Below, one piece after another: positions 2,417 through 46,785 of a stretch of DNA of 64,000 nucleotides (position 1 is its first letter; every line of letters starts with the position of its first letter). The DNA comes from Clostridiales bacterium UBA1206 (GTDB lineage: Bacteria > Bacillota > Clostridia > Oscillospirales > CAG-382): the NCBI GenBank assembly GCA_002310055.1, contig DBXS01000034.1, positions 69,153 to 133,152 of the forward strand. Reading direction: 5' to 3'. Both the position numbers and the translations under genes were made by a program. The notes beneath the pieces were generated by a model that made no database searches, was not told where the DNA came from, and worked only from the letters and a program-made list of their open reading frames with translations.

Positions 2417-2433
2417 ATTGCCGACCTCCTTTT

Positions 2434-11883: not shown

Positions 11884-11960
11884 GGTTCGGTAGTTCAGTT
11901 GGTTAGAACGCCGCCCTGTCACGGCGGAGGTCGTGGGTTCGAGTCCCATCCGAATCGCCA
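11884..11960 (+). tRNA. tRNA-Asp (GTC)
   Basis: Hand-folded cloverleaf. Acceptor ggttcgg/ccgaatc, anticodon loop c-t-GTC-a-c, T-loop ggttcgagtcc, encoded CCA. Confidence 0.9.
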
Positions 11961-11977
11961 TACTATTCAATGATCAC

Positions 11978-12053
11978 GCCTCTGTAGCTCAGTTGGTAGA
12001 GCAGGGGACTGAAAATTCCCGTGTCGTTGGTTCAATTCCGACCGGAGGCACCA
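11978..12053 (+). tRNA. tRNA-Phe (GAA)
   Basis: Acceptor gcctctg/cggaggc, anticodon loop ctGAAaa, T-loop ggttcaattcc, encoded CCA. Confidence 0.9.
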
Positions 12054-12073
12054 TAATCATTGAATAGTTTTAT

Positions 12074-12149
12074 GCGGATTTAGCTCATTTGGTAGAGCGC
12101 CACCTTGCCAAGGTGGAGGTAGCGGGTTCGAACCCCGTAATCCGCTCCA
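12074..12149 (+). tRNA. tRNA-Gly (GCC)
   Basis: Acceptor gcggatt/aatccgc, anticodon stem ccacc/ggtgg with loop ttGCCaa, T-loop ggttcgaaccc, encoded CCA. Confidence 0.9.
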
Positions 12150-12263
12150 TTTTTTCGACGTGTCGATTTCGTTCGGCGTGTTTACACGGTTCGGATCGGG
12201 CGCAAACGTCGAAAAAAGTAACGCGGTAAATACCGCTTAATAAACGGTTCTGCCGTTTATTTT

Positions 12264-12339
12264 GCTGATGTGGCACAGGTGGTAGCGCACATCCTTGGTA
12301 AGGATGAGGTCACGAGTTCGAATCTCGTCATCAGCTCCA
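12264..12339 (+). tRNA. tRNA-Thr (GGT)
   Basis: Acceptor gctgatg/catcagc, anticodon stem catcc/ggatg with loop ttGGTaa, T-loop agttcgaatct, encoded CCA. Confidence 0.9.
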
Positions 12340-12367: not shown

Positions 12368-12483
12368 CAATTATTATAAGCGTTAGTCAATAATTAGTAA
12401 CACTTTATCTCTTGACTATTTTTATTTAATATGATAAAATTCAAATACTGAAAAATATGACTATTTTGAAAGGGTATGAACAT

Positions 12484-13491
12484 ATGAAACGTTTGATTGC
12501 TGTTTTGCTTTCGCTTTGCCTGCTCCTCGCTTTGGCGGCGTGCGGCGGAAACTCCACAGAGACCTCCGAAACTTCCGGAAAAGAGAGCTCTTCTTCTGCT
12601 GATCCTTCTTCCGATACTTCCGGCGCAGATGTTTCCGCGCCTCAACCTGATGAAAGCGGCGTTGAACCTCAGGAAAGCGAAGATGTTTCGCAGATAGTCG
12701 AAGACGAGTATTTCACCAAATTCGACCAGACGACTTCCTATGACAGCGACGATACTACAATAGTGTTCGACGGCTCTTCCGTCACGATTTCCGGCGTCGG
12801 CGCCACCGCGAACGGCGCGTTCGTCACCATCACCGCCGCGGGCACCTACGTCGTCTCCGGCAGATCTACCAACGGCCAGATAATCGTCGAAGTGGCAAAG
12901 ACCGACAAAGTGCGCCTCGTCTTCAACGGGCTCGACCTCATCTGCTCCAAATCGGCTCCTGTATGGGTCAAATCCGCCGACAAGGTGGCTGTTACCCTCG
13001 CAGACGGAACCAAGAACTTTCTGACCGACGGCAAGACTTACGTGTACGATAACGCAGATAACGAACCTAACGCCTGTCTGTTTTCCAAGGACGACCTCAC
13101 CGTAAACGGCGGCGGGTCGCTCGAGATCAAGGCGAACAATAATAACGGCATAGGCACCAAGAACGACCTACGCATCTTTTCCGGCAATATTACCGTCAGC
13201 GCAGCCAAGAACGCGCTCAAGGGCAACGATTCCGTGGCGATCAACAGCGGAGTCGTCATCAATATCACCAAATGCAAGGACGGCATAAAGACTGACAACA
13301 CTGAAGAAGTCCTCAAAGGATTCGTATATATCCGCGGCGGCGACATAAGCATCACCGCTTCCGACGACGGCATCCAGGCGACTCGAAAAGTGACGGTCGA
13401 AGGCGGAAACATCACTGTCAGCGCACGCAGCAACGTCATCAACTGCGACGGCGAGGTCAAGGTGGCTAAAGACGTCATTACCGAAAAATGA
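12484..13491 (+). CDS. lipoprotein, carbohydrate-binding-domain (DUF4353-like) beta-helical repeat protein
   Basis: Signal and lipobox MKRLIAVLLSLCLLLALAAC. After a Ser/Glu-rich linker come motifs as in the DUF4353 family: TITAAGTYVVSGRSTNGQIIVE, DDLTVNGGGSLEIKANNNNGIGTKNDLRI, GNITVSAAKNALKGNDSV. Confidence 0.7.
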   Translation: MKRLIAVLLSLCLLLALAACGGNSTETSETSGKESSSSADPSSDTSGADVSAPQPDESGVEPQESEDVSQIVEDEYFTKFDQTTSYDSDDTTIVFDGSSVTISGVGATANGAFVTITAAGTYVVSGRSTNGQIIVEVAKTDKVRLVFNGLDLICSKSAPVWVKSADKVAVTLADGTKNFLTDGKTYVYDNADNEPNACLFSKDDLTVNGGGSLEIKANNNNGIGTKNDLRIFSGNITVSAAKNALKGNDSVAINSGVVINITKCKDGIKTDNTEEVLKGFVYIRGGDISITASDDGIQATRKVTVEGGNITVSARSNVINCDGEVKVAKDVITEK

Positions 13492-29949: not shown

Positions 29950-29978
29950 TTGACAATTCCGTTTTGTTGTGATATTAT
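29950..29978 (+). promoter_or_regulatory. sigma-A-type promoter for tRNA-Arg (TTGACA-17-TATTAT, TGTGa extended -10)
   Basis: ttgacaattccgttttgttgtgaTATTAT, 25 nt upstream of the tRNA. Confidence 0.6.
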
Positions 29979-30002
29979 ATGTCTTGCTCGAAAAACGAGT
30001 AT

Positions 30003-30079
<77 letters not shown>

Positions 30080-30080
30080 T

Positions 30081-30119
30081 GCAAAAAGCGTCTTTTGTCA
30101 AACAAAAGACGCTTTTTGC
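30081..30119 (+). terminator. terminator hairpin after tRNA-Arg (perfect 17-bp stem)
   Basis: gcaaaaagcgtcttttg-tcaaa-caaaagacgctttttgc. Confidence 0.65.
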
Positions 30120-30281: not shown

Positions 30282-30310
30282 TTGACAAATTTGTCGATTT
30301 GTGCTATATA
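30282..30310 (+). promoter_or_regulatory. sigma-A-type promoter for the pilus-like operon (TTGACA-17-TATATA, TGTGc extended -10)
   Basis: ttgacaaatttgtcgatttgtgcTATATA, about 70 nt upstream of the first prepilin ATG. Confidence 0.6.
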
Positions 30311-30380
30311 TAATATGATATACAGGAGTAATATGTTCATTTGACGTACAACTGTAGTTTTATGAAAGGAGCGCGGTATT

Positions 30381-30902
30381 ATGCATCGTCGTATAGGCAA
30401 ACGGCCGGTATCTTTAAGACGCGGCGTTACGCTTGTGGAACTCTGTATAGTGCTTGCGCTTATTTCCGTTGTTACGGTGATGGTCACTTCGTTTACCGTG
30501 CTCACGCGTTCTTACGCGTATAAGGCCTCGCGCGAAAACGGCATACGCCTTTCGCTAAACGCCGTAGAGCACGCGTTCGACACCTGGGTTTCCGCTTTTG
30601 ACGATTCCGATAATGAGTTTTCCGCCGATGGAAGCGCTTTAAACGTGAACACAACAGAAACTTTGCGATTTGATGACAATGCTAAGCGCTTTACTGGTTC
30701 GACAGATAAATACGACATTGCGATAGACTTTGATGTTGAAAATATTGAAAGCGTCAGTTTCAGTATCGAAGGATCTAATGGAGCTGTCTGCCTTATAAAA
30801 TGTGAAGTTACGTATATTCTTGATGACGGCGTAGAAGAAACGATCGCTTTTCTTCGCGCGACGCGCGCAGCTAAGAAAGCCGTAACTGAGGGAGGCGATT
30901 GA
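30381..30902 (+). CDS. prepilin-type N-terminal cleavage/methylation-domain protein (pilin/pseudopilin 1)
   Basis: 173 aa. A basic 15-aa leader MHRRIGKRPVSLRRG is followed by VTLVELCIVLALISVVTVMV, with Glu at +5 and a hydrophobic helix. AAGGAG RBS. Confidence 0.75.
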   Translation: MHRRIGKRPVSLRRGVTLVELCIVLALISVVTVMVTSFTVLTRSYAYKASRENGIRLSLNAVEHAFDTWVSAFDDSDNEFSADGSALNVNTTETLRFDDNAKRFTGSTDKYDIAIDFDVENIESVSFSIEGSNGAVCLIKCEVTYILDDGVEETIAFLRATRAAKKAVTEGGD

Positions 30903-30903
30903 T

Positions 30904-31281
30904 ATGGGGATATTCAAGCGCCTTTTCAGGAAAAAGAGTCACTGCGGCAAGCGCGGCATGACTGTAGGCGAAGTGATAATCGCGATCGCTGTTATCGTTA
31001 TAGTCACAATCTCCGCCGCTTATACCATCCGTATGAGCGCCTCGGCGACCTCCCGTGATTTCAACTACGAGCGAGCTCGCATTGCCGCCAGAAATTCTTT
31101 GGAAGAGTTCAAGTATTACGATACAACAAGATATGTGGAACAGTTCGGCGATCATTATACGGAGCAGTTCGGCAACTATACGTTATATATCTATATCGAG
31201 GTTTCACGCAACAACTACAAAGCTTGGATCACTTACGACGGTGAAAGTAATTTGCTGTTAGATTATACCAAAGGCGGTTAA
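30904..31281 (+). CDS. prepilin-type protein (pseudopilin 2)
   Basis: 125 aa. An 18-aa basic leader ...HCGKRG is followed by MTVGEVIIAIAVIVIVTISAAY (Glu at +5). 1-nt gap to the upstream gene. Confidence 0.65.
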   Translation: MGIFKRLFRKKSHCGKRGMTVGEVIIAIAVIVIVTISAAYTIRMSASATSRDFNYERARIAARNSLEEFKYYDTTRYVEQFGDHYTEQFGNYTLYIYIEVSRNNYKAWITYDGESNLLLDYTKGG

Positions 31282-31282
31282 T

Positions 31283-31690
31283 ATGTTAAAGAATAAAAAG
31301 GGGATCGCAATTGAGACCGCGGTCTTTATGATGATAGTCATCTTTGCGCTATGCACGTTAATTGTGACAATAACGTTGTATTCGCGGCAGCATTCAATAA
31401 AAGCGAATAACGATTTTATAAACCGCGTTAATCTTGATAAGGTGGGCGAGAAGTTTATTGCTGCTTTAAATGCTGCTTTAAAAGAGAATAACGACGCCGA
31501 TTCGTTTGATTTCGACGGAAAAGTATATTCGATCATTTCCGACGGCAACGAACGCATTCTTACCGTTTACGACGATAACGGCAAAGTGGTACTTAACGTC
31601 GTTGCGGAGCCTGACGGTGGCAATTATACAATAAAACGCTGGAGCTGTTTTGAAAAAGCGAGCGAAACTTCGGCGAATCCGGGAGAATAA
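31283..31690 (+). CDS. pseudopilin-like protein 3 (ComGG-like minor pilin?)
   Basis: 135 aa. MLKNKKG then IAIETAVFMMIVIFALCTLIV, where Glu is at +4 if cleavage follows Gly. The C-terminal ...YTIKRWS recalls the ComGG tail. Confidence 0.5.
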   Translation: MLKNKKGIAIETAVFMMIVIFALCTLIVTITLYSRQHSIKANNDFINRVNLDKVGEKFIAALNAALKENNDADSFDFDGKVYSIISDGNERILTVYDDNGKVVLNVVAEPDGGNYTIKRWSCFEKASETSANPGE

Positions 31691-31701
31691 AGGGAAGAAT
31701 T

Positions 31702-32919
31702 ATGGCTGTTAACAATTCATCTTGCATATATATCGACACCCGCGACAAGGCGGTGCATTATTACGGCTCGGTCGGCGGAAGAGCGGTGCACGACGTCGCC
31801 AATTATAATTCGCGCACGCTCGACAGCGCCTTCTTCAACGATTTTACCGAGATACTCGTCGGGTTTATGCGCAAGTATACCCCGGCGCAGGCCGCCAATT
31901 CCACAGTCATACTGCCGGATTCCGTCATTATGACCGATATCATCACGCTGCCCGCGATGAAAAGCAATATTATGCGCGGCACCGTGGAATCGACTCTTTC
32001 CGGCCTTTATAAAAACCGCAAGGAACTGCGGCTCAACACGTTTTACGCCCTGCAGAACAGGCAATATTCAGAAGTGTGCATCTGCGGCGTAAAGGAACTT
32101 CTGATTTCTGCCGTAAAGAACTCCTGCGTCACTTCGCGTTTCAACGCGCAGAACATAACTTTTGCCGCCGAAACTTCGGCGCGCGCCGCCTCCGCGCTCA
32201 ATTCCAAGCTCAAAGGCGCGACGTATCTGCTTTTGGATATCAAAGAGACCTATACCCGCGTGGTTTACGTTTACAAAGGAATGTCTCTTGGCTTTTCGGC
32301 ACTGCCTTTCGGCTATTCCATACTCGAAAAACCCAAGCTCGCGTCCGAGGATATGCTGTTTGACCATTCCGTAGCTGAACTCGCGGTGCTCAACGCGCGC
32401 GAGCGCGCCAAGGCGAGAGCGGTCACGTTTATAGGCGAAGGCATAGTCGACGCCACACAGGTCGTGATACCGCAAAATGACGAAAACGACGAAAACGGCG
32501 AAGAAGACGACGACGCGTTTTCCGGCGGCGACTTTGCCGATCCGGCGCGTCAGCCCGGCACGGTTTATAAGACTCTGCCCAAGAAATCCGCGCGCAAACT
32601 GCCCAAATATATGCTGCGTCCGACGCCCTCTGCCGACGAAGGCGTGGCTGACGAAAACTTTCGCATTTTCGCCAAATGGGCGCTGTGCTATCTTCAGGGG
32701 AATCCAAAGCTCGAAAGCCTCGCGGGCGCAAAAGCGGTGTACGTCAACCTTCCGGAGCACCTCAATCACGTGATAACCGCTATCAACGAAGAACACAGCG
32801 AAAACAAATATCAGTTCCTGCCCGCGTCGTTCGACACGCGCGACGAGTTCGTGCAGCGCAATATAGAGCTGTACGGCGGACTTTTCGTTGGCGGCAGCCG
32901 GAACAACAACGTCTTTTAA
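31702..32919 (+). CDS. PilM-like actin-fold pilus assembly protein with an acidic/basic disordered insertion
   Basis: 405 aa. VILPDSVIMTDIITLPAMKSNIMRGTVESTL... and YLLLDIKETYTRVVYVYKG...LPFGYSIL follow the PilM pattern. The insertion is QNDENDENGEEDDDAFSGGDFADPARQ...KKSARKLPKYMLRP. Confidence 0.55.
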   Translation: MAVNNSSCIYIDTRDKAVHYYGSVGGRAVHDVANYNSRTLDSAFFNDFTEILVGFMRKYTPAQAANSTVILPDSVIMTDIITLPAMKSNIMRGTVESTLSGLYKNRKELRLNTFYALQNRQYSEVCICGVKELLISAVKNSCVTSRFNAQNITFAAETSARAASALNSKLKGATYLLLDIKETYTRVVYVYKGMSLGFSALPFGYSILEKPKLASEDMLFDHSVAELAVLNARERAKARAVTFIGEGIVDATQVVIPQNDENDENGEEDDDAFSGGDFADPARQPGTVYKTLPKKSARKLPKYMLRPTPSADEGVADENFRIFAKWALCYLQGNPKLESLAGAKAVYVNLPEHLNHVITAINEEHSENKYQFLPASFDTRDEFVQRNIELYGGLFVGGSRNNNVF

Positions 32920-32933
32920 GGATCGTACGCGTT

Positions 32934-33737
32934 ATGATCATATCTGTTACCGATCCGTTTTATCTGACCGTTGCGTATATACTCTGCGGTCTGTTGGGAC
33001 TTTGCGTGGGCAGCTTCCTCAACGTAGTCATTTACCGAGTTCCGCTTGGGATGAGCGTGGCGCGCCCCGCGTCGCACTGTCCGGTCTGTTCGGCAAAGAT
33101 ACGCCTGTACGACAATATACCAATCGTTTCGTATATTTTGCTCGGCGGCAAATGCCGCAGCTGCAAATGCCGCATTCCGTTCAGATATACAGCCGTGGAG
33201 GCGCTTAACTGCGCGTTGTGGCTGCTGTGCGTACTCGTTTATCACACCAATCTGATCTTTATGATCATTTCGTGCGCCGTCTGCTCGGTGTGCATATGCG
33301 TTTTCTTTATAGATCTCGAGCATATGATAATCCCCGACCGCTTTCAGGTGATACTCGGAGTTCTCGCCGTTACAAGCGTGTTTTTCGATACCGAATACGA
33401 CTGGCTTTCACATCTTATAGGACTCGCAGCGGCGCTTGTCGTATTCATCGCGGTGGGATACGCGGTGAGCAGGTATAAAAAGCGCGAATCGCTCGGCGGC
33501 GGCGACATAAAATTTGCCGCCTGCGCCGGACTTCTGCTCGGCTGGCAGAGGTTCATACTTATGATGCTCATCGCATCCGTGAGCGCAAGCGTCGTGCTGC
33601 TTATCAAATCAAAACGTTCAAAAGACGAAACGTCTAAAGAATACCCGTTCGGGCCTTTCCTCGCAACGGGCGCCGTATTGGCACTGCTGTTCGGTCATTA
33701 TGTGATCGAATGGTATATTAAGCTGCTTGTCGGCTGA
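32934..33737 (+). CDS. pilD: prepilin peptidase (A24 family, PilD/ComC type)
   Basis: Internal ATG at 32934. GLCVGSFLNVVIYRVP, the Zn-finger CPVCSAKIRLYDNIPIVSYILLGGKCRSCKC, and GGGDIKFAA (catalytic Asp motif). Confidence 0.9.
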   Translation: MIISVTDPFYLTVAYILCGLLGLCVGSFLNVVIYRVPLGMSVARPASHCPVCSAKIRLYDNIPIVSYILLGGKCRSCKCRIPFRYTAVEALNCALWLLCVLVYHTNLIFMIISCAVCSVCICVFFIDLEHMIIPDRFQVILGVLAVTSVFFDTEYDWLSHLIGLAAALVVFIAVGYAVSRYKKRESLGGGDIKFAACAGLLLGWQRFILMMLIASVSASVVLLIKSKRSKDETSKEYPFGPFLATGAVLALLFGHYVIEWYIKLLVG

Positions 33738-33767
33738 AATTCCTGTATTCTCGAAAGGGCTTTTCTG

Positions 33768-34979
33768 ATGCAGCAATTCAAATACACGGCTATCAATCTT
33801 CAAAACGAAAAGATAACGGGCAACTTCATCGCCGCCGACGAGCAGGATCTCGCGGTCCAGCTTTCCAAGCAGGGGCTGTATCTGCTTTCCGCAACTCCGT
33901 ACAGCGGCAAGTCGCCTTCCGCGTTCTTTACTACCGGTACCGGCAAAGTCAAACTTTCCGAACTCACGGCGTTCTGCCGCCAGTATTCCATAATGCTTAA
34001 TTCCGGCATATCGCTGCTTAACGGTATAGAGATATTGAAAGAGCAGAGCTTTTCGCGCTATTTCAGGTCTCTCTTGCAAGTCGTTTACGAAGACGTCAAG
34101 ACCGGCGTGATGCTTTCCGACGCGATGGCGAAGCACAAGCGCGTTTTCCCGGATTTCTTTCGCAGTATGATAAAAGTCGGCGAGCTCGGCGGAAGGCTCG
34201 ATATCGTTATGAATTCGCTTGCCGATTATTACGAGCGCGACAGGGCGATAAAGAAAAAAGTCAGCAGCGCTTTCGCTTACCCCATAATGCTGGCGCTGAT
34301 GACGGTCGGCATCGTCGTCCTTATGCTCGCGTTCGTCATACCCACGTTCCGCAAAACGTTCGCCGAGCTGAATATGGAAGTCACCGGACTGACCAAAGCG
34401 GTGTATTCGATTTCTGATTTTCTAATGAATTACTGGGCGTTTATGCTTTTGGGCGTCGTGCTTCTGGTGGGTATATTCCTTATAGTCAGAAAGACAAAAA
34501 AGGGAAGGTATTTCATCGACTGGTACAAAATGCACGGCCCGTTCGTAAAGAAAGTCTACCGCGAACTTATTACCGCCCGATTTGCAAGAGGTTTCGGCCT
34601 GCTGCTTTCAAGCGGTATGGATATGACCGAGGCGATGAAATCGGTGGTCATAGTTTTCGGCAATAAATACGTCGAAGAACGCTTCAACAAAGCCGCTGAC
34701 GACGTCTGCCACGGCGTTTCGCTCGCCGTCGCTTTCGACAGGCAAAAGCTGTTCCCGGACATTATGCTGCAGATGATCGCCATAGGCGAACGCACCGGTT
34801 CGCTCGACGAAGTGCTCACGCGCTCCTGCACTTTCTTCGACGACGCCGTTGAGACAACGCTCACGCGCGTGACGACCAGGATACAGCCCATTATGCTCGT
34901 TATACTTGCCATTGTCGTGGCGCTGCTGTTCCTTGCAGTATACTCTCCTATGCTTTCAATAATGAACGTCCTTCACTGA
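33768..34979 (+). CDS. pilC: type II secretion system F-family platform protein (PilC/ComGB type)
   Basis: 403 aa with two T2SSF repeats (SGISLLNGIEIL..., MIKVGELGGRLD / MIAIGERTGSLD). Confidence 0.9.
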   Translation: MQQFKYTAINLQNEKITGNFIAADEQDLAVQLSKQGLYLLSATPYSGKSPSAFFTTGTGKVKLSELTAFCRQYSIMLNSGISLLNGIEILKEQSFSRYFRSLLQVVYEDVKTGVMLSDAMAKHKRVFPDFFRSMIKVGELGGRLDIVMNSLADYYERDRAIKKKVSSAFAYPIMLALMTVGIVVLMLAFVIPTFRKTFAELNMEVTGLTKAVYSISDFLMNYWAFMLLGVVLLVGIFLIVRKTKKGRYFIDWYKMHGPFVKKVYRELITARFARGFGLLLSSGMDMTEAMKSVVIVFGNKYVEERFNKAADDVCHGVSLAVAFDRQKLFPDIMLQMIAIGERTGSLDEVLTRSCTFFDDAVETTLTRVTTRIQPIMLVILAIVVALLFLAVYSPMLSIMNVLH

Positions 34980-35012
34980 ACATAAATTCGCCGCATTTTC
35001 AGAGGTTTTCCA

Positions 35013-36701
35013 ATGAACATTGATTACGACCTTTTACAGTTTTACGTCTATAAAAGAATAATCGACAGAAAAGACGTCGACGAGATACTTTCGGAAAGCA
35101 AGCGCCTCAAAACGCCCGTGCGTGACTATCTGCTCGCCAAGGAATACACCACCGAAACGACCGAGCTCGAAGCGCTTGCCGAGTATTACTGTATGCCTTT
35201 TATAGAGCTCGATATGCTCGATATCGACCAGACGCTGTTCGAACGTTTTTCTTTCGACTATATGAAGAAAAACAAGTTCATACCGGTAAGTATCGAAAAG
35301 AACGGCGTACTCATAATTGCGGTAGGCAAACCGCTCGATTTCAACGCTATGACCGCGTACTCCGCCGCTTTTGACTGTCCCGTTGATTTTATCCTCACGC
35401 CGCCCATACAGATCGACCGTTATATCGATTCCATCGCAACTGTCATTTCCACGTCCGACGCGTTGAAGGATATAAACACCGAAAACGACGACCGTCTGTT
35501 TGCGGGGCTCCGGAACGCCACCGCTTCCATATCTTCCGCCGACGACGTGGTGAACAATCCGTCTGTCCGGCTCGTCGATTCTATTATAAAAGAAGCCATA
35601 CCTTACCGCGCGTCCGATATCCATATTGAACCGTTTGAAAAACGCGTACGCGTGCGTTACCGTATAGACGGCGACCTGCAGGAACGCGCCAATTTCCCGA
35701 TCGAAGCGTACCCCGCGATATGCGCCCGCATAAAGATAATGGCGGGGCTTAATATCGCCGAACGCCGCGTGCCGCAGGACGGCAGGATCAATATGCGGAT
35801 AAGCGGCAAGGATTACGACTTTCGCGTTTCGTCGCTGCCTTCGGTCCACGGCGAAAAGTTCGTTATACGTATACTCGATAAATCTTCGTTCCGGTTCACA
35901 CGTTCCGAACTCGGCTTCACCGACGAGGAAAACAAGATAGTCGATAAAATGCTTATGCGCCCGCACGGCATAATCCTGCTCACAGGCCCCACCGGATGCG
36001 GTAAATCCACAACGCTTTACTCTTTCCTCAAAGAAGTAAACGTTCCCACCGTCAATATAATCACGGTCGAAGACCCTGTCGAATACACGATGGCAGGGAT
36101 CACGCAGACCCAGGTCAACACCAAGACCAATATGACGTTCGCCACGGCGCTGCGTTCGATACTCCGTCAGGACCCCGATATCATAATGATAGGCGAGATA
36201 CGCGACGAGGAGACCGCCGAGATCGCCGTGCGTTCGGCAATAACCGGCCACCTCGTCTTCAGCACACTCCACACCAACGACGCTCCCGGCGCCGTTACGC
36301 GTCTCGAAGATATGCACGTTCCCGACTATCTCGTCGCGGACGCGCTGGTTGGCGTTATTGCGCAGAGGCTCGTAAAACACCTTTGCCCCGCCTGCAAGAA
36401 GCGCGGCAAGACCAACGCAAAGGAAATGGAAATACTGGGCATTGACGAGCCCGTGAGCATCTACAGGCCGCAAGGATGTCAGTTCTGCAACAACACCGGT
36501 TATAAAGGCCGCGTCGCGATACACGAGATCCTTTATATCGACGAGAATATGAAAAACATCATTGCGCAGAACAAGAACTCCGAATCGCTGCGCACCGCGG
36601 CGGCCCAGAACGGTATGATCAAGCTGTGGGATTCTTGCAGGAATCTCGTTCTTAAAGGGACGACCAGTATTCAGGAACTGATGACGCTCAACATCGAATA
36701 A
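35013..36701 (+). CDS. pilB: type IV pilus assembly ATPase (GspE/PilB family) with N-terminal T2SSE_N domain
   Basis: 562 aa. Walker A GPTGCGKSTT, Asp box, Walker B IIMIGEIRD, His box STLHTND, and a tetracysteine CPACKK...CQFC. Confidence 0.93.
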   Translation: MNIDYDLLQFYVYKRIIDRKDVDEILSESKRLKTPVRDYLLAKEYTTETTELEALAEYYCMPFIELDMLDIDQTLFERFSFDYMKKNKFIPVSIEKNGVLIIAVGKPLDFNAMTAYSAAFDCPVDFILTPPIQIDRYIDSIATVISTSDALKDINTENDDRLFAGLRNATASISSADDVVNNPSVRLVDSIIKEAIPYRASDIHIEPFEKRVRVRYRIDGDLQERANFPIEAYPAICARIKIMAGLNIAERRVPQDGRINMRISGKDYDFRVSSLPSVHGEKFVIRILDKSSFRFTRSELGFTDEENKIVDKMLMRPHGIILLTGPTGCGKSTTLYSFLKEVNVPTVNIITVEDPVEYTMAGITQTQVNTKTNMTFATALRSILRQDPDIIMIGEIRDEETAEIAVRSAITGHLVFSTLHTNDAPGAVTRLEDMHVPDYLVADALVGVIAQRLVKHLCPACKKRGKTNAKEMEILGIDEPVSIYRPQGCQFCNNTGYKGRVAIHEILYIDENMKNIIAQNKNSESLRTAAAQNGMIKLWDSCRNLVLKGTTSIQELMTLNIE

Positions 36702-36722
36702 TTCCAGGGAGGTAAAAAGCCA

Positions 36723-39488
36723 ATGGCGAAACAGCATCTGTACGCCCGCGTGCCCGCAAAACTCAGTATGTTCAATAAAACCGACGGGTACGACACGTTT
36801 GCCTGTTCCGCCGGCATAACCGAGGAATTTGCCGTTAAAGAGCTTTCGTACGTTTGCGATATAAAACTTAATCCGGACGTCGCCGACGACATTCGTTCCG
36901 GAAAGCTTTCTCCGGTTTACAGCCAGTTTTCGACCCGCGACGGTATGCTCGTCCAGAGCTGCGTTACTTATCTTCCGCTCGATTATTCCGGCGAGCGCAG
37001 CACGTATATGGTGCATTCGCTGATCTCCGGAAAAGAAGAATACGTTCAGTTTTTTGCTTCGTTTGAAGACGCCGTCATAAACAAAGACGCGTTCCTTCAC
37101 GATCTTTCGTCTTTCAACGTGACGGATCCTTCGTCTAAATCGGATAGCAGCTATCCCGAAAAGCCGCTCGAACGCGTCAGGTGCGAATCGCAGAACTGGA
37201 TAGCCGAAACGTACGAGCGCGATCTGCTCAGGCGGTTCGTTTATTCCGTCTTTGCCGCGATAAGCGGTAAGATAAAAGGCGTCTTCGTTGCGCTCAAAGA
37301 TACTTCCGAACCGACTTCCGACGGATTTATAAGGTTTATAAATTCGCTGTTCAAAGTCGTGCCGTTCCATCTTCGCCCTGCGCTTTCGTTCGCTACGCGC
37401 GTTATAAATCCCGCGCAGTTTTCGGGAATAAAGCTCAAAGGAATCGCCGCCGGTATTGATACGCTCAAAGTTCCCAAGTGCGCCGTATTCGATTTTGAGT
37501 CCGGCGCTTTTACGGGCGTTAAAGACGACGACGTGAACGCAAATATCCAGGCGGTCGATTTTATCTGCTCGCTGTTCAAAAACGACGCGCTGCGCCGCGA
37601 TTTCCTCACGTTCGCCGATAAAGTCGTCGCCGCGTCTCCCTCGCTCGGCGGAACATCTTTAAATAGTCTTAACGATATAATCTGCCTTTTCCGCTGCGGC
37701 TGCGGCTTTTACGAAGAAAAGGCCGTGCTTCCCAACGACGCAAAACTGCTCGAAGTGTTAGGCGTCTACGAAAGCCACCGCAGGTCGCTCCCCGACGATT
37801 ACCGCGTTACGATAATGCGCAGCGTGAACAGATATCCCGCGTCCAGGATAGAGATACCAAAAAAGATATTTGCAAAACTGCAGAAACTGTACCCCAAAGA
37901 GATCCCCGGGACCAAGCACGTCATAATGAACGCCGTGCTCGACCTCATACACACCGACGCCATGCGCGACAAGCTTTTCGCTTTTATTAAAGCGAATTAC
38001 CGCGACGAAGACGATACTGCAAAAGCCGATATCATCCGCCACCTGTGCAGCGTTTTTTACGGCGGTTTTCTCCAGGCGCAGCTTTTGGAATTCTTTGACG
38101 AATGCTTTGGCGATTCGTCCGGCGAAAGCAGGGACGAGATAATTTCCAAGATACTGCTTGTGATCCGTACCAAATCGCTGTACGATCAGATCACCGCGTT
38201 TCTTAACGCACACTACGGCGAACTGACGCCGGAAAACCGCTCAAAAGTATACGATACCATACTTGAACAGCTGCCCGAAGGCGACGAGCTTGCGTACAGA
38301 CTTATCTGCTTTGCGGACGGTCATATCGAAAGCGAGAACAGCGAATTTGTTTCTTCGTTCGACGCACGGCTTATTAAAGCGGTGAACAAAGAGCAGAGCC
38401 GCGCCAAGCATCCTATGCTTGAAGTGATCTGCAAGACCTCCGGCCACTGTTCAAAAGCGGTCGCGGAATACGTGTTCACCGAATGCGCCGGCGCAAAGAT
38501 ATATGACGAATTCATAAACTTACAGCTTTCGGGTTCGTTTGCTTCTCAAAAGCGCTGTGTCGAATATATGTCCGAATTCTGCGGCGTGAACGACGCGGAA
38601 AAAGCCGTAACGCTTTCCGAAAAAGCGGCGGAAGTCATGCTTAACGCAAAGACCGAATATTCGCTTGGCGAACTTATAGATACCGCAAACGAATTTGACG
38701 GCTCAAGTAATGCGTTTATGTCGCTCGTTTCGCAAAAAGCGCTGTGTCCGCTCGTTTCCGCAAGGCTTACGGACGTGTTCGCGCGAACGGACGGAACTCT
38801 TACCGCGGAAGACGTCGAATCGTTCTGCGAGCGCTTTGCGCAGATAAAAAAAGACGCTCCGTACGGCGTTATCGAGAATTATCTCAACTTTAAAAGCGCT
38901 GTGATTTCGGCGCAGAACGACGAAGTGTTCAAGTACTCGGAAGCGTTCCCTCGCGACAAAAAGCTGCGTTCGCACATAGGCGCATACGCCGAAAAGGATA
39001 TTGCGGAAAAAGTTAATGAAAGCGACGTCATAAGCTACGCATCTTTCCGTTTTGCCGTTTCTTATTTGAAGACCGGCTCTTTCCGCATTGAAGACGCGTT
39101 TGACGAACTGTGCAAGTCGCGCGCTTCGTCAGCAAACGACGAAGACGATATGCAGAACGTTTTCGGTATTGCTGATAAACTTATCGAAGTCTGCGTTTCG
39201 ATCGACTCGAACCAAAGCGTTTCGCCCGAGTTCAGATCGCTCCTAACATATCAGGATTCCGGACTGTACGGAATGCTCGACCAGCTTGCAACGAGGTACG
39301 AGAAGCGCGCCGTCAGGCATCTCGAATCGGTGATAAAGCCGTACGGCGACGAACACGCGGAACTCGTTTCATTCTGCCGCGGAGTCATCCGCCGCAAAAG
39401 AAACACGTCCGGCGGCGTATTATCAGCCGTAGGCAACGCTTTCAAAAAACTCTTTGCCGGAATCAAAGGCGTTTTTACAAAAAAATAG
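36723..39488 (+). CDS. large soluble hypothetical protein, last gene of the pilus-like operon (orphan; possible GAP1-N2-like N-terminus)
   Basis: 921-aa uninterrupted ORF. GGGAGG RBS 8 nt upstream; starts 21 nt after the pilB stop. No signal peptide or TM segment seen. Mostly helical-looking and Cys-containing, with a basic C-terminal tail. Confidence 0.7.
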   Translation: MAKQHLYARVPAKLSMFNKTDGYDTFACSAGITEEFAVKELSYVCDIKLNPDVADDIRSGKLSPVYSQFSTRDGMLVQSCVTYLPLDYSGERSTYMVHSLISGKEEYVQFFASFEDAVINKDAFLHDLSSFNVTDPSSKSDSSYPEKPLERVRCESQNWIAETYERDLLRRFVYSVFAAISGKIKGVFVALKDTSEPTSDGFIRFINSLFKVVPFHLRPALSFATRVINPAQFSGIKLKGIAAGIDTLKVPKCAVFDFESGAFTGVKDDDVNANIQAVDFICSLFKNDALRRDFLTFADKVVAASPSLGGTSLNSLNDIICLFRCGCGFYEEKAVLPNDAKLLEVLGVYESHRRSLPDDYRVTIMRSVNRYPASRIEIPKKIFAKLQKLYPKEIPGTKHVIMNAVLDLIHTDAMRDKLFAFIKANYRDEDDTAKADIIRHLCSVFYGGFLQAQLLEFFDECFGDSSGESRDEIISKILLVIRTKSLYDQITAFLNAHYGELTPENRSKVYDTILEQLPEGDELAYRLICFADGHIESENSEFVSSFDARLIKAVNKEQSRAKHPMLEVICKTSGHCSKAVAEYVFTECAGAKIYDEFINLQLSGSFASQKRCVEYMSEFCGVNDAEKAVTLSEKAAEVMLNAKTEYSLGELIDTANEFDGSSNAFMSLVSQKALCPLVSARLTDVFARTDGTLTAEDVESFCERFAQIKKDAPYGVIENYLNFKSAVISAQNDEVFKYSEAFPRDKKLRSHIGAYAEKDIAEKVNESDVISYASFRFAVSYLKTGSFRIEDAFDELCKSRASSANDEDDMQNVFGIADKLIEVCVSIDSNQSVSPEFRSLLTYQDSGLYGMLDQLATRYEKRAVRHLESVIKPYGDEHAELVSFCRGVIRRKRNTSGGVLSAVGNAFKKLFAGIKGVFTKK

Positions 39489-39501
39489 TGTAAAAATACA
39501 A

Positions 39502-39538
39502 AAAGCCCGAAGTACAACATACTTTCGGGCTTTTTTCT
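39502..39538. terminator. bidirectional rho-independent terminator
   Basis: The arms aagcccgaagt / actttcgggctt form a stem followed by ttttct. It lies between convergent operons. Confidence 0.75.
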
Positions 39539-39546
39539 TTGCCGAC

Positions 39547-42637: not shown

Positions 42638-43074
42638 AGCTTTTTGCAGGCGATTTCAGCCAGCTTGTCTATCGCTTCGGTATATCCGCTCGTGCCGTGG
42701 CCGACGATCGAGCATACGCAAACATCGCGCACGTAACTTACGGCGCGGAAACTTTCACGCGCGGAAATATCCGAAATATGCACTTCCGCGGCGGGTATCT
42801 GCACAGCTTTGAGCGCGTCGGCGATCGCAATGCTCGTATGGGTATACGCCGCAGGATTTATAACGATACCGTCGTATTTTCCGTTCGCTTTCTGTATGAC
42901 GTCGATCATCCTGCCTTCGTGGTTCGACTGGAAAAGTTTGACTCTTATTCCGCGCTCGCGGCAATAAGACTTGATATCGCGTGCTAACTGCGCGTACGTT
43001 TGAGTACCGTATATCTGCGGTTCGCGTATTCCCAGCATATTAATATTCGGGCCGTTTATAACGAGGATTTTCAT
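42634..43074 (-). CDS. aroQ: type II 3-dehydroquinate dehydratase
   Basis: Internal ATG at 43074 (ATGA overlap with the upstream stop). MKILVINGPNINMLGIREPQIYG, FQSNHEG, NPAAYTHTS. Confidence 0.93.
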   Translation of the reverse strand: MKILVINGPNINMLGIREPQIYGTQTYAQLARDIKSYCRERGIRVKLFQSNHEGRMIDVIQKANGKYDGIVINPAAYTHTSIAIADALKAVQIPAAEVHISDISARESFRAVSYVRDVCVCSIVGHGTSGYTEAIDKLAEIACKKL

Positions 43075-44309
43075 ATCTGCAACACCTCCAGAAGATCTGC
43101 TGCGCATTTTTCGGGCGTGACGGACGCCGAAAAACGAATATCGCAGCGCGTTTCGTAAAGCGGTAAGCGTTCTTTGTACATTGCCGTAAGTTTTTCATAA
43201 CTTGAGGAAAGCGGTCGGTCGCTGTATACTTTCAGCTCGTCGAACGGTCGGTCGATGAAAACTATCTTTCCGTTCATCCTGAGTTTTCTTATATTACCTT
43301 CGTCAAGTATCGCTCCGCCGCCGGTAGAGATCACGGCGCCGCTGATCTTAGCGATCTCGGATATTATATCGCATTCGATATTCCTGAACTCGCGCTCTCC
43401 GCGTTCGGCGATTATCTCGTGCGGATATCTGCCGGTCTTTTCGCGGATCAGAAGATCGGTGTCGTAAAACGGTCTGCCTGTCTTTGCGGAAATAATACGC
43501 GCAAGCGTGGTCTTGCCCGAACCCGGCATTCCCGTAAGGACTGTGTTTTCCTTTTGCTTGAGCAGCTTTCCGTATATTTCTTCCGTAAGGCTATCGTCGA
43601 AATGTTTGCAAACGAACTTTTCGCTCGCGCTGACCGCTTGAGCGACTAGCATATACAGACCGGCTTCCGCTTTGATACCGAGCGAGCGTGAACGCATAAC
43701 GAGATCCGTGCGCAGCGGATTATAGACGACGTCGACAACGCCTTTCAAGCACTTGAAACGCGCCACGTCGGCGGCGCATCCGTAAATATGCGGCCAGGTG
43801 CCGCAGGGCGTCGTGTTGATGATATAATTCGCGTCGGCGTGTTCTTCGTACGAACGCTCATAGGTCACGCTTCCGGGCTTTTCGGTGCGCGATAGGAATA
43901 TGATATTTGCCGCGCCCAGTTTATTCGCCGCGGCGTACGCGGTGCGCGAAGTTGCGCCGGTGCCGCAGATAAGCACTTTAGCGCTTTTTAAATCGAATCC
44001 GCCGTGATTTATAAGCGCGCAGAGTCCGGTGATATCGGTATTATAGCCGTAAAGAACGCCGTCTTTGTTCACGACGGTATTCACAGCGCCGATAGCGAGC
44101 GCGTCGGGGTCGATGACGTCGATATATTCCATAACTGCGCGTTTATACGGATTCGTCACGTTAATACCTATAAAATCGCGCGCGGTCATAAAGGCTCGAA
44201 GCTCGTCGGGCCTCAGCGCGCGCGGTTCATAGCCGTAACCGCCGATCATATTGTGTATGTCTTTAGAAAAACTGTGTTCGAGCGACTCGCCGATAAGACC
44301 GTATTTCAT
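43071..44309 (-). CDS. bifunctional shikimate dehydrogenase / shikimate kinase (AroE-AroK fusion)
   Basis: Internal ATG at 44309 (ATGA overlap with the aroC stop). N-terminal half: YGLIGESLEHSFSKDIHN, NVTNPYK, NTD. C-terminal half: LTGMPGSGKTTLARI Walker A and STGGG. Confidence 0.88.
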   Translation of the reverse strand: MKYGLIGESLEHSFSKDIHNMIGGYGYEPRALRPDELRAFMTARDFIGINVTNPYKRAVMEYIDVIDPDALAIGAVNTVVNKDGVLYGYNTDITGLCALINHGGFDLKSAKVLICGTGATSRTAYAAANKLGAANIIFLSRTEKPGSVTYERSYEEHADANYIINTTPCGTWPHIYGCAADVARFKCLKGVVDVVYNPLRTDLVMRSRSLGIKAEAGLYMLVAQAVSASEKFVCKHFDDSLTEEIYGKLLKQKENTVLTGMPGSGKTTLARIISAKTGRPFYDTDLLIREKTGRYPHEIIAERGEREFRNIECDIISEIAKISGAVISTGGGAILDEGNIRKLRMNGKIVFIDRPFDELKVYSDRPLSSSYEKLTAMYKERLPLYETRCDIRFSASVTPEKCAADLLEVLQI

Positions 44310-45406
44310 ATGTTTTCCTTTGCAAGATAATCGGTGCCGTACTTTATGCACAGCATATCCGCTACGCAGAACGCCGTCAACGCGTCGACGACGGCCCTGA
44401 CGCGGTGGACGATGCACGGGTCGTGCCTGCCGTTTACGGAAATTACCGCGTTTTCTTTTGTACATATATTCACCGTGTTTTGTTTGACCGAAACGGAAGG
44501 AGTCGGCTTGACGGCGCATCTGAAAATAACGGGCATTCCGTTGGCGATACCGCCGTTAATTCCGCCGTTATTGTTAGTCGTTGTAAATATCCTGCCGTTT
44601 TCAGCGCGGAATTCGTCGTTGCATTCGCTGCCGCGCATATCCGCGACGGCAAAACCGGCGCCGAATTCTACGCCTTTCACTCCGCCTATAGAAAACATCG
44701 CGTGCGATATGACGCTTTCAACGGAATCGAAAAACGGTTCGCCGACTCCGGCCGGAATGCCGTCTACAACGGTTTCCAGCACGCCGCCTACGCTGTCGCC
44801 GGCAGAAGCTGCAAGTTTTATGTTTTCTGCCATTCTTGCCGCCGATACGTCGTCAAGCACGGCGAAACGTTTGTTTTCGAGTATTTCTATATCTTTTGGG
44901 ATATCGCCGAAACTTCTGTCGTCAATCCCCGCGCAGCGCAGTATGTGAGTGGCTATGCGCACGCCTTTTGCGCGCAGCGCGCCGTTTACTATCGCTCCCG
45001 CGGCGCAAAGCGCTGAAGTGACTCTTCCGCTGAAATGTCCGCCGCCGTTGGGGTCGGAAAAGCCGTTATACTTGTAAAAAGCGGTGAGATCGGCGTGCCC
45101 GGGCCGCGCAAGACCGGATATTTCCTTATAATTTTCGCTGTTTATATCTATGTTAGGTATGACGATGCAGACCGGCGTTCCCTGAGTGAAGCCCTTGTAT
45201 ACGCCGCTTATGATCGAATACTCGTCTTTTTCGCGCCGAGTTGTCGAAATATCGCCGAACGGCCTTCTGTTGAAAAGCGCTTTCTCTATGCTTTCGCGAT
45301 TTACGGGGATTCCCGGGGAAAGCCCGTCGATTACCGCGCCGATAGCTTGTCCGTGGCTTTCGCCGAACACAGTAACGGTGAGAACGCTGCCGAACGTATT
45401 TTTCAT
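44306..45406 (-). CDS. aroC: chorismate synthase
   Basis: 366 aa. FGESHG, RPGHADL, GGGHFSGR, GRHDPC. Confidence 0.95.
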   Translation of the reverse strand: MKNTFGSVLTVTVFGESHGQAIGAVIDGLSPGIPVNRESIEKALFNRRPFGDISTTRREKDEYSIISGVYKGFTQGTPVCIVIPNIDINSENYKEISGLARPGHADLTAFYKYNGFSDPNGGGHFSGRVTSALCAAGAIVNGALRAKGVRIATHILRCAGIDDRSFGDIPKDIEILENKRFAVLDDVSAARMAENIKLAASAGDSVGGVLETVVDGIPAGVGEPFFDSVESVISHAMFSIGGVKGVEFGAGFAVADMRGSECNDEFRAENGRIFTTTNNNGGINGGIANGMPVIFRCAVKPTPSVSVKQNTVNICTKENAVISVNGRHDPCIVHRVRAVVDALTAFCVADMLCIKYGTDYLAKENI

Positions 45407-46704
45407 ATCTTCCTCCGTATGACCGAGATCAGTCCGTCGAGCGAACCGATGAATTCATCTGTGGGTATTTCTTTTATCGAATACTTGCCGATCTCTTCCG
45501 CGGTCACTATATTTATCGTATCGCCGGCTCTCTTTTTGTCGAGCGCGATATAATGAGCGAGCTCTTTTGCGTTCACGTCGCATTCCGTAGGCAAGCCGCA
45601 TTCTTTGAGCAGTTTTACAAGCCTCCCGCGCACTTTTTCGGAACACATAGGTATCATTCCGAGCGCGACGCATTCGCCGTGCAGCAAATTGCCGAGCCCC
45701 TTTGCGCTTTCAATGGAATGCCCGAGCGTGTGGCCGAAATTGAGCGCGCGCCTCAGCGACGATTCTTTATGGTCGTTTTCGACTATCACTGCTTTGAGCT
45801 CGACCGCGCGCATGATGACCTTATCTATGTTCCCGTCATACACTCCGCGCTCAAGGAGCTCGAACAGATTCTTATTGCAGGTGACGGCTATCTTGATTAT
45901 TTCAGCCATTCCGTTGGCGATATGTCTGCGCTCGAGCGTCTGCAGGACGTCCGGATCGATTATGACCGCCTTGGGGTCGTAAAAAGCGCCTATAAGATTT
46001 TTGCCGCCGCGGTAGTCGACGCCAACTTTTCCACCCACCGAAGAATCGACCTGCGAAAGAAGGGTGGTCGGCACGTTGTAAAACGAGATCCCGCGGTTGT
46101 AGATCGACGCGGCAAAACCGGCCGTGTCGCCCACAACGCCGCCGCCGAGCGCCACGACGCAATCGGAACGGGTAAATCCGTTTTCGTACAACTTATCAAT
46201 TATTCGGAACAGATTGTCGCGGTTTTTGTTTTCTTCGCCTTGTGGCAATACGAGAGTTTGACATCCGCCGAGCGAGGAAACGCATTTTTCGAGATGCTGT
46301 TTCGGCACGCCGGAATCCGTTACTATAAGAATTCTGCCGGCGCTTTTTACGTATTTGCCGAGTTCGTTAAGCGCGCCGCGTTTGATGGTTACGGTGTATC
46401 CGTCGTTTCCGGTGCTTACAAATATTTCGTTATCTTCGCAAAGCAGCGCGCGCTGGTATTTTTTGGAAAGATTCAACGTATTCCGCACGTTTTCTCTGTA
46501 AAACTTTTTAGTGTCGCCGTCCGGATACGCGTCCGCGCGGGTGCGTATGACTTCCGCTTCGCGAGTAAGATCCGTCACGTCGAGCCCGTGCTTGCGTTTA
46601 TAAAACGCGATCTTCGCCGCATACTCCATTCGCGCGCCGAAAAGCTCGGCGTTTATTTTATCTATATCGTCGATTTTTGCGCGTGCTTTTTCAAGCTCGT
46701 CCAT
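45403..46704 (-). CDS. bifunctional chorismate mutase (AroQ class) / 3-dehydroquinate synthase fusion
   Basis: The N-terminal ~90 aa is LEKARAKIDDIDKINAELFGARMEYAAKIAFYK. AroB motifs follow: GGGVVGDTAGFAA, VPTTLLSQVDSSVGGK, GHTLGH. The start at 46704 was chosen for a GGAG placed 6 nt upstream. ATGs at 46743 and 46785 are in-frame alternatives. Confidence 0.85.
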   Translation of the reverse strand: MDELEKARAKIDDIDKINAELFGARMEYAAKIAFYKRKHGLDVTDLTREAEVIRTRADAYPDGDTKKFYRENVRNTLNLSKKYQRALLCEDNEIFVSTGNDGYTVTIKRGALNELGKYVKSAGRILIVTDSGVPKQHLEKCVSSLGGCQTLVLPQGEENKNRDNLFRIIDKLYENGFTRSDCVVALGGGVVGDTAGFAASIYNRGISFYNVPTTLLSQVDSSVGGKVGVDYRGGKNLIGAFYDPKAVIIDPDVLQTLERRHIANGMAEIIKIAVTCNKNLFELLERGVYDGNIDKVIMRAVELKAVIVENDHKESSLRRALNFGHTLGHSIESAKGLGNLLHGECVALGMIPMCSEKVRGRLVKLLKECGLPTECDVNAKELAHYIALDKKRAGDTINIVTAEEIGKYSIKEIPTDEFIGSLDGLISVIRRKI

Positions 46705-46756
46705 AATACGCTCCGTGTTTAAATTATTTATATTGATTTTCATTGCCGCATAATGT

Positions 46757-46785
46757 ATTATATAATACGGAATCGATAAAATCAA
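46757..46785 (-). promoter_or_regulatory. sigma-A-type promoter for the aromatic operon (TTGATT-17-TATAAT)
   Basis: The minus strand reads ttgattttatcgattccgtattaTATAAT. Confidence 0.5.

Follow-up and report, generated by a model that had tools for sequence, protein, structure and literature searches.

A type IV filament operon with a soluble PilM-like and a GAP1-like protein in uncultured gut and rumen Clostridia

Type IVa pili of monoderm bacteria are defined by recognisable PilM, PilN and PilO proteins together with PilT (PMC6916266); examples are the pil locus of Streptococcus sanguinis, the pil operons of Clostridium perfringens and Clostridioides difficile, and the cellulose-binding pili of Ruminococcus albus and Ruminococcus flavefaciens, the last encoded by the cluster pilM-pilF-pil1-pil2-pilD-pilB-pilT-pil3-pil4 (PMC3672088). 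The Com pilus of Bacilli is a compact machine, with the operon comGA-GB-GC-GD-GE-GF-GG, a distant comC and no PilN/O (PMC10790768). Open questions listed for these machines include the way in which the extension ATPase is held at the platform and coupled to it, and the contribution of PilM, PilN and PilO (PMC6916266). Here we describe an operon of eight genes at positions 30381-39488 of a 64-kilobase (kb) stretch of contig DBXS01000034.1 from Clostridiales bacterium UBA1206, referred to below as the window; every negative result given for the window applies to these 64 kb.

We favour, with moderate confidence, the reading that this locus is the assembly-machine operon of a type IV filament of the PilB/GspE kind (resembling type IVa pili and type II secretion systems), a variant restricted to uncultured Clostridia of gut and rumen in which a soluble PilM-like and a GAP1-like protein serve as scaffold or regulator of PilB. 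An earlier sequence-only reading had counted eight open reading frames (ORFs) on one strand, and the ORF list agrees exactly, with successive gaps of 1, 1, 11, 14, 30, 33 and 21 nucleotides (nt). Three pilin-like genes are followed by those for a PilM-like protein, PilD, PilC, PilB and a large protein named P8 here (lengths in amino acids, aa):

30381..30902, plus strand: P1, prepilin-like protein, 173 aa; class III signal RRG/VTLVE with Glu at +5; N_methyl/TIGR02532, E 7e-4
30904..31281, plus strand: P2, prepilin-like protein, 125 aa; KRG/MTVGE with Glu at +5, from a motif scan
31283..31690, plus strand: P3, pilin-like bitopic protein, 135 aa; (K/R)G-x-A-x-E motif with Glu at +4, not +5
31702..32919, plus strand: P4, soluble PilM-like protein of actin/ASKHA fold, 405 aa; AlphaFold2 model and Foldseek
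32934..33737, plus strand: PilD, bifunctional prepilin peptidase/N-methylase, 267 aa; A24_N_bact 1.4e-31, Peptidase_A24 9.6e-17 (Pfam)
33768..34979, plus strand: PilC/GspF-type platform protein, 403 aa; T2SSF twice at 1e-58 (Pfam)
35013..36701, plus strand: PilB/GspE-type extension ATPase, 562 aa; T2SSE 6.7e-137, MshEN N-domain 3.1e-12 (Pfam)
36723..39488, plus strand: P8, cytoplasmic GAP1-like protein, 921 aa; GAP1-N2 (PF20013) at residues 1-105, 43.4 bits (cut-off 24), E 4.6e-11

Matches in Pfam, NCBIfam and the PDB confirm the view of a type IV filament operon, and three of the parts by which type IVa pili are recognised, the extension ATPase PilB, the platform PilC and the peptidase PilD, are all present. 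For PilD, the mechanically assigned ORF starts at 32676; we prefer the ATG at 32934 as the likely start because it fits both the 261-268 aa PilD proteins of relatives and the Pfam match. PilC scores 307 bits on the NCBIfam GspF model (cut-off 424), 252 on the PilC model, likewise below its equivalog cut-off, and 155.5 on ComGB (cut-off 240); in a PDB sequence search it matches Myxococcus xanthus PilC (3jc8_Ca, 7.5e-60). The ATPase, in whose translation a CxxC...CxxC motif is present, scores 571 bits on GspE (cut-off 630), 560 on TIGR02538 PilB (cut-off 675) and 276.4 on ComGA (cut-off 300). PDB entries for GspE and for type IVa PilB of Geobacter and Myxococcus all match it at about 1e-113, those for BfpD and PilT at about 1e-35, and the alignment to type IVa PilB spans residues 14-560, N-terminus included. 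These scores place the machine within the PilB/GspE clade of type IV filaments, yet in none of the curated equivalogs; PilB itself belongs to a separate clade within its type, because its TIGR02538 score falls below the equivalog cut-off. The earlier assignment of the ATPase as PilB-like rather than ComGA-like, on account of its long T2SSE_N domain, is upheld by the MshEN domain and by the 560-571 against 276 bits.

The arrangement of these genes recurs widely. A scan of one genome per species yielded 79 loci, every one of them in an uncultured clostridial inhabitant of gut or rumen with a label such as Oscillospiraceae, Acutalibacteraceae, Ruminococcus or Faecousia. In 64 of the 73 species loci that could be evaluated, the gene immediately upstream of P8 is PilB; P4, PilC, PilB and P8 are colinear, in that order, in all 51 loci whose flank measures 6.4 kb or more, and PilD sits between P4 and PilC in 50 of these 51. 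P8 identity in these loci falls as low as about 30%. The tblastn hits of PilB and P8 are separated by a median of about 38 nt across loci (21 nt between the genes here), and metagenome contigs show the same pattern. What the sequence-only reading took for an atypical gene order is thus no one-off but the norm for a clade of uncultured Clostridia, and the last gene, which it called an orphan, encodes a member of a conserved GAP1-N2 family: at least 139 homologues of about 900 aa carry this domain as P8 does, including 120 of the 120 listed. Among the exceptions, two loci (L068:10001-13840 and L082:10570-13880) contain a P8 paralogue followed at once by the gene for a 343-aa PilT-like ATPase (T2SSE 2e-49), the L068 paralogue residing in the same genome as operon copy L073. 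Members of the GAP1-like family thus occur next to retraction motors as well as extension motors. We found no paper on Oscillospiraceae type IV pili with this layout.

The N-terminal part of P8 connects it to a protein described in a different setting. GAP1 is known as the partner of DO-GTPases in conflict systems (PMC7159879). An exhaustive search of 1.84 billion representatives with a P8 family profile returned only 333 matches. Clusters of full-length P8-type proteins account for about 65 of them. Proteins of 600-1100 aa make up a second tier, which matches profile positions 1-330 only (E 1e-24 to 1e-33) and consists of canonical GAP1, with GAP1-N2 at 130-150 bits and GAP1-M. In P8 itself the score for GAP1-M (PF20014), 14.7 bits, stays below the cut-off of 24; matches to PF20014 are recorded for many members of the family. 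A polar core of Q4, R9, D24, T25, S29, D87, R92, H98 and R218 is common to the P8 family and canonical GAP1. On these profile matches and shared residues, the N-terminal ~330 residues of P8 (GAP1-N2 and a probable GAP1-M) are homologous to GAP1. The two also share a position immediately downstream of a P-loop NTPase gene and a predicted role at the inner face of the membrane; the neighbouring NTPase differs, being the hexameric secretion ATPase PilB here (PilT for two paralogues) and not a DO-GTPase, and the C-terminal 600 residues of P8 form a family-specific alpha-solenoid.

The domain raises the possibility that P8 is an unrelated neighbour, the GAP1 part of a DO-GTPase conflict (defence) system that happens to lie beside pilus genes, and the only published description of GAP1-N2 does concern conflict systems. 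The single context of a canonical GAP1 that was looked up (L083) has directly upstream of it a gene with weak DO-GTPase2 and faint DO-GTPase1 Pfam matches and an adjoining vWA gene, in agreement with the description by Kaur et al. 2020 (PMC7159879). In the loci studied here, however, tblastn with the DO-GTPase of L083 finds none in the window or in any of 82 loci, no FNIII, vWA or tubulin partners or variable effector genes are listed in the annotated loci L001-L003, and PADLOC gives no match for P8. Since P8 also follows PilB directly in most genomes at short distance, and its C-terminal two-thirds differ from canonical GAP1, we regard a chance neighbourhood as very improbable. We found no paper tying GAP1, PF20013, PF20014 or DO-GTPase to pili, and PMC7159879 and its supplement do not mention pili, PilB or T2SSE. 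A phage, plasmid or defence origin of P8 was considered separately and rejected, there being no matches in plasmids, phages, PHROGs or PADLOC.

The AlphaFold2 model of P8 has a mean predicted local distance difference test (pLDDT) score of 92.9 and comprises an alpha/beta GAP1 module (residues 1-285/330), an alpha-solenoid (288-893), a low-confidence linker and a C-terminal helix (902-917). By eye, the strand-helix order of residues 1-111 may be longin/roadblock-like. A fold search with the full-length model retrieves generic HEAT/ARM solenoids only (importin-beta, AP2, CAND1; E about 5e-4), and PDB sequence searches with P8 and its family profile gave nothing meaningful. A highly conserved patch (339-483) includes HTDxMRDKL and VFYGGFLQ. 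Neither a transmembrane segment nor a signal peptide is predicted for P8. At the C-terminus the family carries a short motif of basic and hydrophobic residues, GG(L/F)Fx(R/K)LFG(K/R)K, with a net charge of +3 to +6. Two side observations concern this protein. At L075:4216-13309 a 1121-aa P8-like paralogue follows three same-strand ORFs (581, 866 and 409 aa) that have no Pfam match, which may be another system built around the same module. In the window, the strand opposite pilB and P8 contains an open frame of 778 aa (35034-37370, minus strand); it is most likely a shadow ORF of plus-strand genes rich in G and C at third codon positions.

The second cytoplasmic protein, P4, is recognisable by its fold. 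It has no Pfam or NCBIfam family match, PilM included, and no PDB sequence match; 237 homologues were found, and the 120 listed among them are without any Pfam domain. Its AlphaFold2 model, built on 100 sequences (pLDDT 84.5, predicted template modelling score 0.80, with low confidence in the loop 245-285), retrieves as top Foldseek matches the PilM proteins of Pseudomonas aeruginosa, Thermus thermophilus and M. xanthus (5eq6, 2ych and 3jc8; E 5e-13 to 1e-10) at 10-12% identity, followed by FtsA, the GspE-binding cytoplasmic domain of GspL/EpsL (4pht_X and 1yf5, E about 1e-8) and MreB. The initial PilM-like call accordingly holds at the level of fold only. A partly disordered loop (245-310) carries near its end, at residues ~290-310 (window 32560-32640), an invariant basic-proline motif, LPKKxPRKLPKFMLRP (R298, P301, R306, P309), which might act as a docking peptide. 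The resemblance to GspL of type II secretion is to its actin-like cytoplasmic domain, which binds GspE. GspL itself is held in the membrane by a transmembrane helix and has, in the periplasm, a domain resembling PilN, whereas no transmembrane segment is predicted for P4.

No PilN/PilO-type membrane partner was found beside P4 in the operon. Pfam and NCBIfam give no PilN/PilO match for the operon proteins, the small ORFs of the window not all having been scanned with PilN/PilO profiles; none is listed within 10 kb in the annotated relatives L001-L003 (precomputed Pfam annotation), and the operon leaves no room for hidden ORFs, every gap being 33 nt or shorter. Nor is there a PilT-like gene in the 64 kb, where tblastn with the PilT-like proteins of L068 and L082 finds PilB only. 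The absence of PilN/PilO noted from the letters therefore stands for the operon proteins and three annotated relatives, and that of PilT for the window. Of the features by which type IVa pili are otherwise known, PilN/PilO were thus not encountered in the operon, nor were PilT and a class III major pilin in the window. Compared with monoderm type IVa pili, the locus shares PilB with an MshEN-type N-domain, PilC, a bifunctional PilD, several class III pilins, a cytoplasmic actin-fold PilM-like protein, the grouping in a single cluster and a single-membrane host. It differs in a PilM recognisable by fold only, in lacking PilN/PilO in the locus and PilT in the window, in a presumably unlinked major pilin and in the ~900-aa GAP1-like protein after PilB. 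The R. flavefaciens cluster, with pilM, pilT and linked major pilins, has a different order.

These features could also be read as those of an endopilus resembling type II secretion, which would carry proteins out through the cell wall instead of forming a surface pilus. PilB and PilC score marginally higher on the GspE and GspF models than on those for PilB and PilC, GspE is among the top PDB matches, P4 resembles the cytoplasmic domain of GspL as well as PilM, and the operon carries minor-pilin-like genes only. The GspE and GspF scores (571/630 and 307/424) nevertheless stay below the equivalog cut-offs, no GspC, L, M or secretin is present and no other Gsp component was matched, type II secretion is described for diderm bacteria (PMC6916266), and the alignment to type IVa PilB is full-length and includes the N-terminus. 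Together with the large modular pilins of relatives described below, which are typical of adhesive pili, this makes an endopilus unlikely in our estimate.

P1 homologues occupy the same position in 35 loci. For P2 only weak GspI-type matches are found (E 0.08), and tblastn detects homologues in 13 loci, which marks it as fast-evolving. P1 and P2, both with class III signals, are candidate minor pilins. The (K/R)G-x-A-x-E motif of P3 is conserved in 39 loci, and P3 has no Pfam or NCBIfam family match, ComGG, PilN and PilO included. The tip complex of type IV filaments is capped by a single subunit without Glu5, GspK or ComGG (PMC10790768), and by analogy, not homology, P3 is a candidate cap subunit of a minor-pilin complex. 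The ComGG-like tail once ascribed to it is not supported by a profile match; only the missing Glu5 recalls the cap subunit (PMC10790768).

A motif scan for the class III signal (G at -1, E at +5) finds P1 and P2 only, and no second prepilin motif outside the operon anywhere in the 64 kb, in keeping with the lack of a clear small major pilin that had been noted. In most inspected relatives, one to three extra pilin genes lie directly upstream of the P1 homologue (e.g. L002:367-3333, L013:364-3263, L016:179-3313 and L023:1194-3317). Their products are almost the same at the N-terminus, GFTIVELVIVIAVIAILAAVLIPTF, but vary in length between 74 and 747 aa; in L020 there is a pilin of 840 aa whose N-terminus is of the P2 type rather than the shared GFTIVELV-type. 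No adhesion modules were found in the large pilins, for which Pfam gave the N_methyl motif only, plus one unexpected HTH_SUN2 match (1.7e-10) in the 747-aa pilin of L002. The main subunit and modular pilins are most readily sought among these GFTIVELV-type proteins. Neither this window nor the 3.6 kb upstream in L004, the closest relative and one with the same layout, contains any of them. Because these upstream genes are missing here, the main filament subunit is probably encoded elsewhere in the genome. Described at first as self-contained, the operon is therefore not so, the extra upstream pilins of relatives having no counterpart in the window.

With no major pilin-like gene, PilT or PilN/O found in the window, the locus might instead be a decaying or incomplete remnant that makes no filament. 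The composition of the pilin genes deviates as well: computed values confirm that they are richer in A and T than their surroundings, P1-P3 having a GC content of 0.42-0.47 and a GC content at third codon positions (GC3) of 0.45-0.57, against a GC3 of 0.60-0.67 for the remaining operon genes and 0.62-0.73 for neighbouring genes. Decay is nonetheless improbable given eight intact, tightly spaced ORFs, most of them preceded by Shine-Dalgarno-like sequences, and the same gene set conserved in more than 50 species over deep divergence. L004 likewise lacks the upstream pilins, and unlinked pilin genes are known in Gram-positive bacteria (PMC3244431).

Another possibility is a competence (Com-like) pilus that takes up DNA with the ComEC encoded in the same window, in a lineage without a comG operon. 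Like the minimal Com system (PMC10790768), the locus is compact and, within the window, has neither PilT nor PilN/O in a monoderm host, and, as in ComGG, Glu5 is missing from its last pilin. None of the ATPase, platform and pilins, however, reaches its Com equivalog cut-off (ComGA 276.4/300, ComGB 155.5/240, ComGC 13.2/75), with PilB/GspE and PilC/GspF scores about twice as high, and the long MshEN N-domain is absent from ComGA. The described Com pilus has eight components, none of them a PilM-like, GAP1-like or large accessory protein, and its peptidase gene lies apart, whereas here the peptidase gene is inside the operon and the order differs (PMC10790768). Relatives have pilins of 400-840 aa, unlike ComGC. 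The presence of ComEC, from which a role in DNA uptake had seemed conceivable, is real (Competence domain, 2434-4476, minus strand), but nothing ties it to the operon: the gene lies 26 kb away on the other strand. In its own right, the region 1388-4476 (minus strand) shows comEC, with Competence as its sole Pfam family at E<=1e-3, next to holA (DNA polymerase III delta), the usual housekeeping arrangement in a core chromosomal region. DNA uptake by the filament is no more than possible, and we consider a Com-like pilus a doubtful explanation. Adhesion is weakly favoured over DNA uptake as the use of the filament, and is our first guess because relatives have large pilins and Ruminococcus has pili that bind cellulose (PMC3672088, PMC6916266).

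If the locus encodes the assembly machine of a type IV filament, as we favour, its working can be sketched as follows. PilD would cleave and methylate the prepilins; P1, P2 and the Glu5-less P3 would form a priming or tip complex of minor pilins; PilC would be the membrane platform and PilB the extension motor, and a main pilin of the GFTIVELV-type would be supplied in trans from elsewhere in the genome. In place of a PilM-PilN-PilO ring there would be two soluble cytoplasmic proteins, the divergent PilM-like P4 and the ~900-residue GAP1-like P8. P4 would bind PilB, as PilM and GspL do, while the N-terminal NTPase-partner module of P8 might dock onto or regulate the PilB hexamer. The alpha-solenoid would serve as a scaffold and the MinD-like basic-hydrophobic tail could hold the complex at the membrane, so that P8 would take the anchoring job done elsewhere by PilN/PilO or by the transmembrane helix of GspL.

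A functional analogy, and only that, is offered by SgmX of M. xanthus, a large TPR protein reported to connect the small GTPase MglA with PilB and to promote the formation of type IVa pili (PMC7519303, PMC7668184). Like SgmX, P8 is a large alpha-helical repeat protein that would act as a scaffold on the cytoplasmic side of a type IV pilus machine, with a connection to GTPase-type regulation. Unlike SgmX, P8 has no known GTPase partner. SgmX is not known to be encoded beside pilB.

Several points weigh against this picture. Seven P8 homologues, including those of L059, L060, L062, L070 and L075, lie away from any pilus ATPase, and among the exceptions is also L053, where PilB lies 2.5 kb upstream of P8. 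The C-terminal tail of P8 has a hydrophobic moment of 0.49, which does not separate it from the internal helices (0.45 +/- 0.10), and its likeness to the membrane-targeting tail of MinD is putative. All carriers are metagenome-assembled genomes. Genes for PilN/PilO, PilT and the major pilin could all lie beyond the 64 kb of the window. Finally, synteny shows functional linkage and not a mechanism; what is established are the gene identities, the PilM-like fold of P4, the GAP1 homology of P8 and the conserved gene order, and contacts of P8 with PilB and with P4 are predictions.

What appears new is a lineage-specific cytoplasmic module on a type IV filament machine of otherwise known type. With clearly less confidence, one may tentatively go further and propose that soluble P4 and a peripheral-membrane P8 replace the transmembrane PilN/PilO ring as a new cytoplasmic platform that tethers and gates PilB, the paralogue doing likewise for PilT, and that the GAP1 module, known so far only as partner of DO-GTPases in conflict systems, is a general P-loop NTPase partner or regulator recruited to a type IV filament. 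For the coupling of the extension ATPase to the platform and the roles of PilM/N/O, a machine with PilB, PilC, PilD and a PilM-like protein, apparently without PilN/O but with one large soluble partner in addition, is a ready comparison case. The GAP1 module is without known biochemical function, and its pairing with PilB or PilT, with the polar core intact, offers a second, tractable context. The carriers are abundant uncultured gut Clostridia of animals and humans, for which such filaments may be a means of attaching to fibre, mucus or other cells.

The boundaries of the operon were also recognisable:

30003..30079, plus strand: tRNA-Arg(acg), upstream boundary and separate transcription unit (ARAGORN)
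30282..30310, plus strand: sigma-70-type promoter-like site, TTGACA at 30282-30287, 17-nt spacer, TATATA at 30305-30310 (read from the sequence)
39504..39539, plus strand: intrinsic-terminator-like hairpin, stem AGCCCGAAGTA / TACTTTCGGGCT, then a T-run (read from the sequence)

As reported from the first inspection, the operon follows directly on tRNA-Arg, and a promoter-like site and a terminator-like hairpin bracket the eight ORFs; both sites are consensus matches of putative function. A TG extended -10 element lies two bases upstream of TATATA. The automatic promoter scan did not list this site because it demands T at the last position of the second hexamer. It did list a promoter-like site for the tRNA gene itself (29950-29978, TTGACA-17-TATTAT, 11/12 matches), and a hairpin lies directly 3' of this gene (window region 29950-30117). 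The tRNA-Arg gene and its promoter are conserved in L004; the spacer to the pilus operon is not, and has its own TTGACA-17-TAAAAT there. At the other end, the hairpin proper (39504-39531) is followed by the T-run TTTTTTCTTT. It may terminate transcription in both directions, serving the DAHP synthase gene too, because it is T-flanked on the other strand as well and that gene, on the minus strand and ending at 39547, converges on it. A tRNA-linked genomic island was considered and rejected: no repeat of the tRNA-Arg 3' end occurs elsewhere in the window, the tRNA linkage is common only to the closest relative L004, and the core genes are of normal composition, which deviates in the pilin genes only.

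Two further groups of genes in the window were noted. At 43074-46785 (minus strand), a shikimate dehydrogenase N-domain and shikimate kinase are joined in one ORF, and chorismate mutase and 3-dehydroquinate synthase are fused in another; these fused aromatic-pathway genes cluster with those for DAHP synthase and prephenate dehydrogenase. At 11884-12339, four tRNA genes (Asp, Phe, Gly and Thr) are followed by the gene for a Cthe_2159-type carbohydrate-binding protein (12457-13488).

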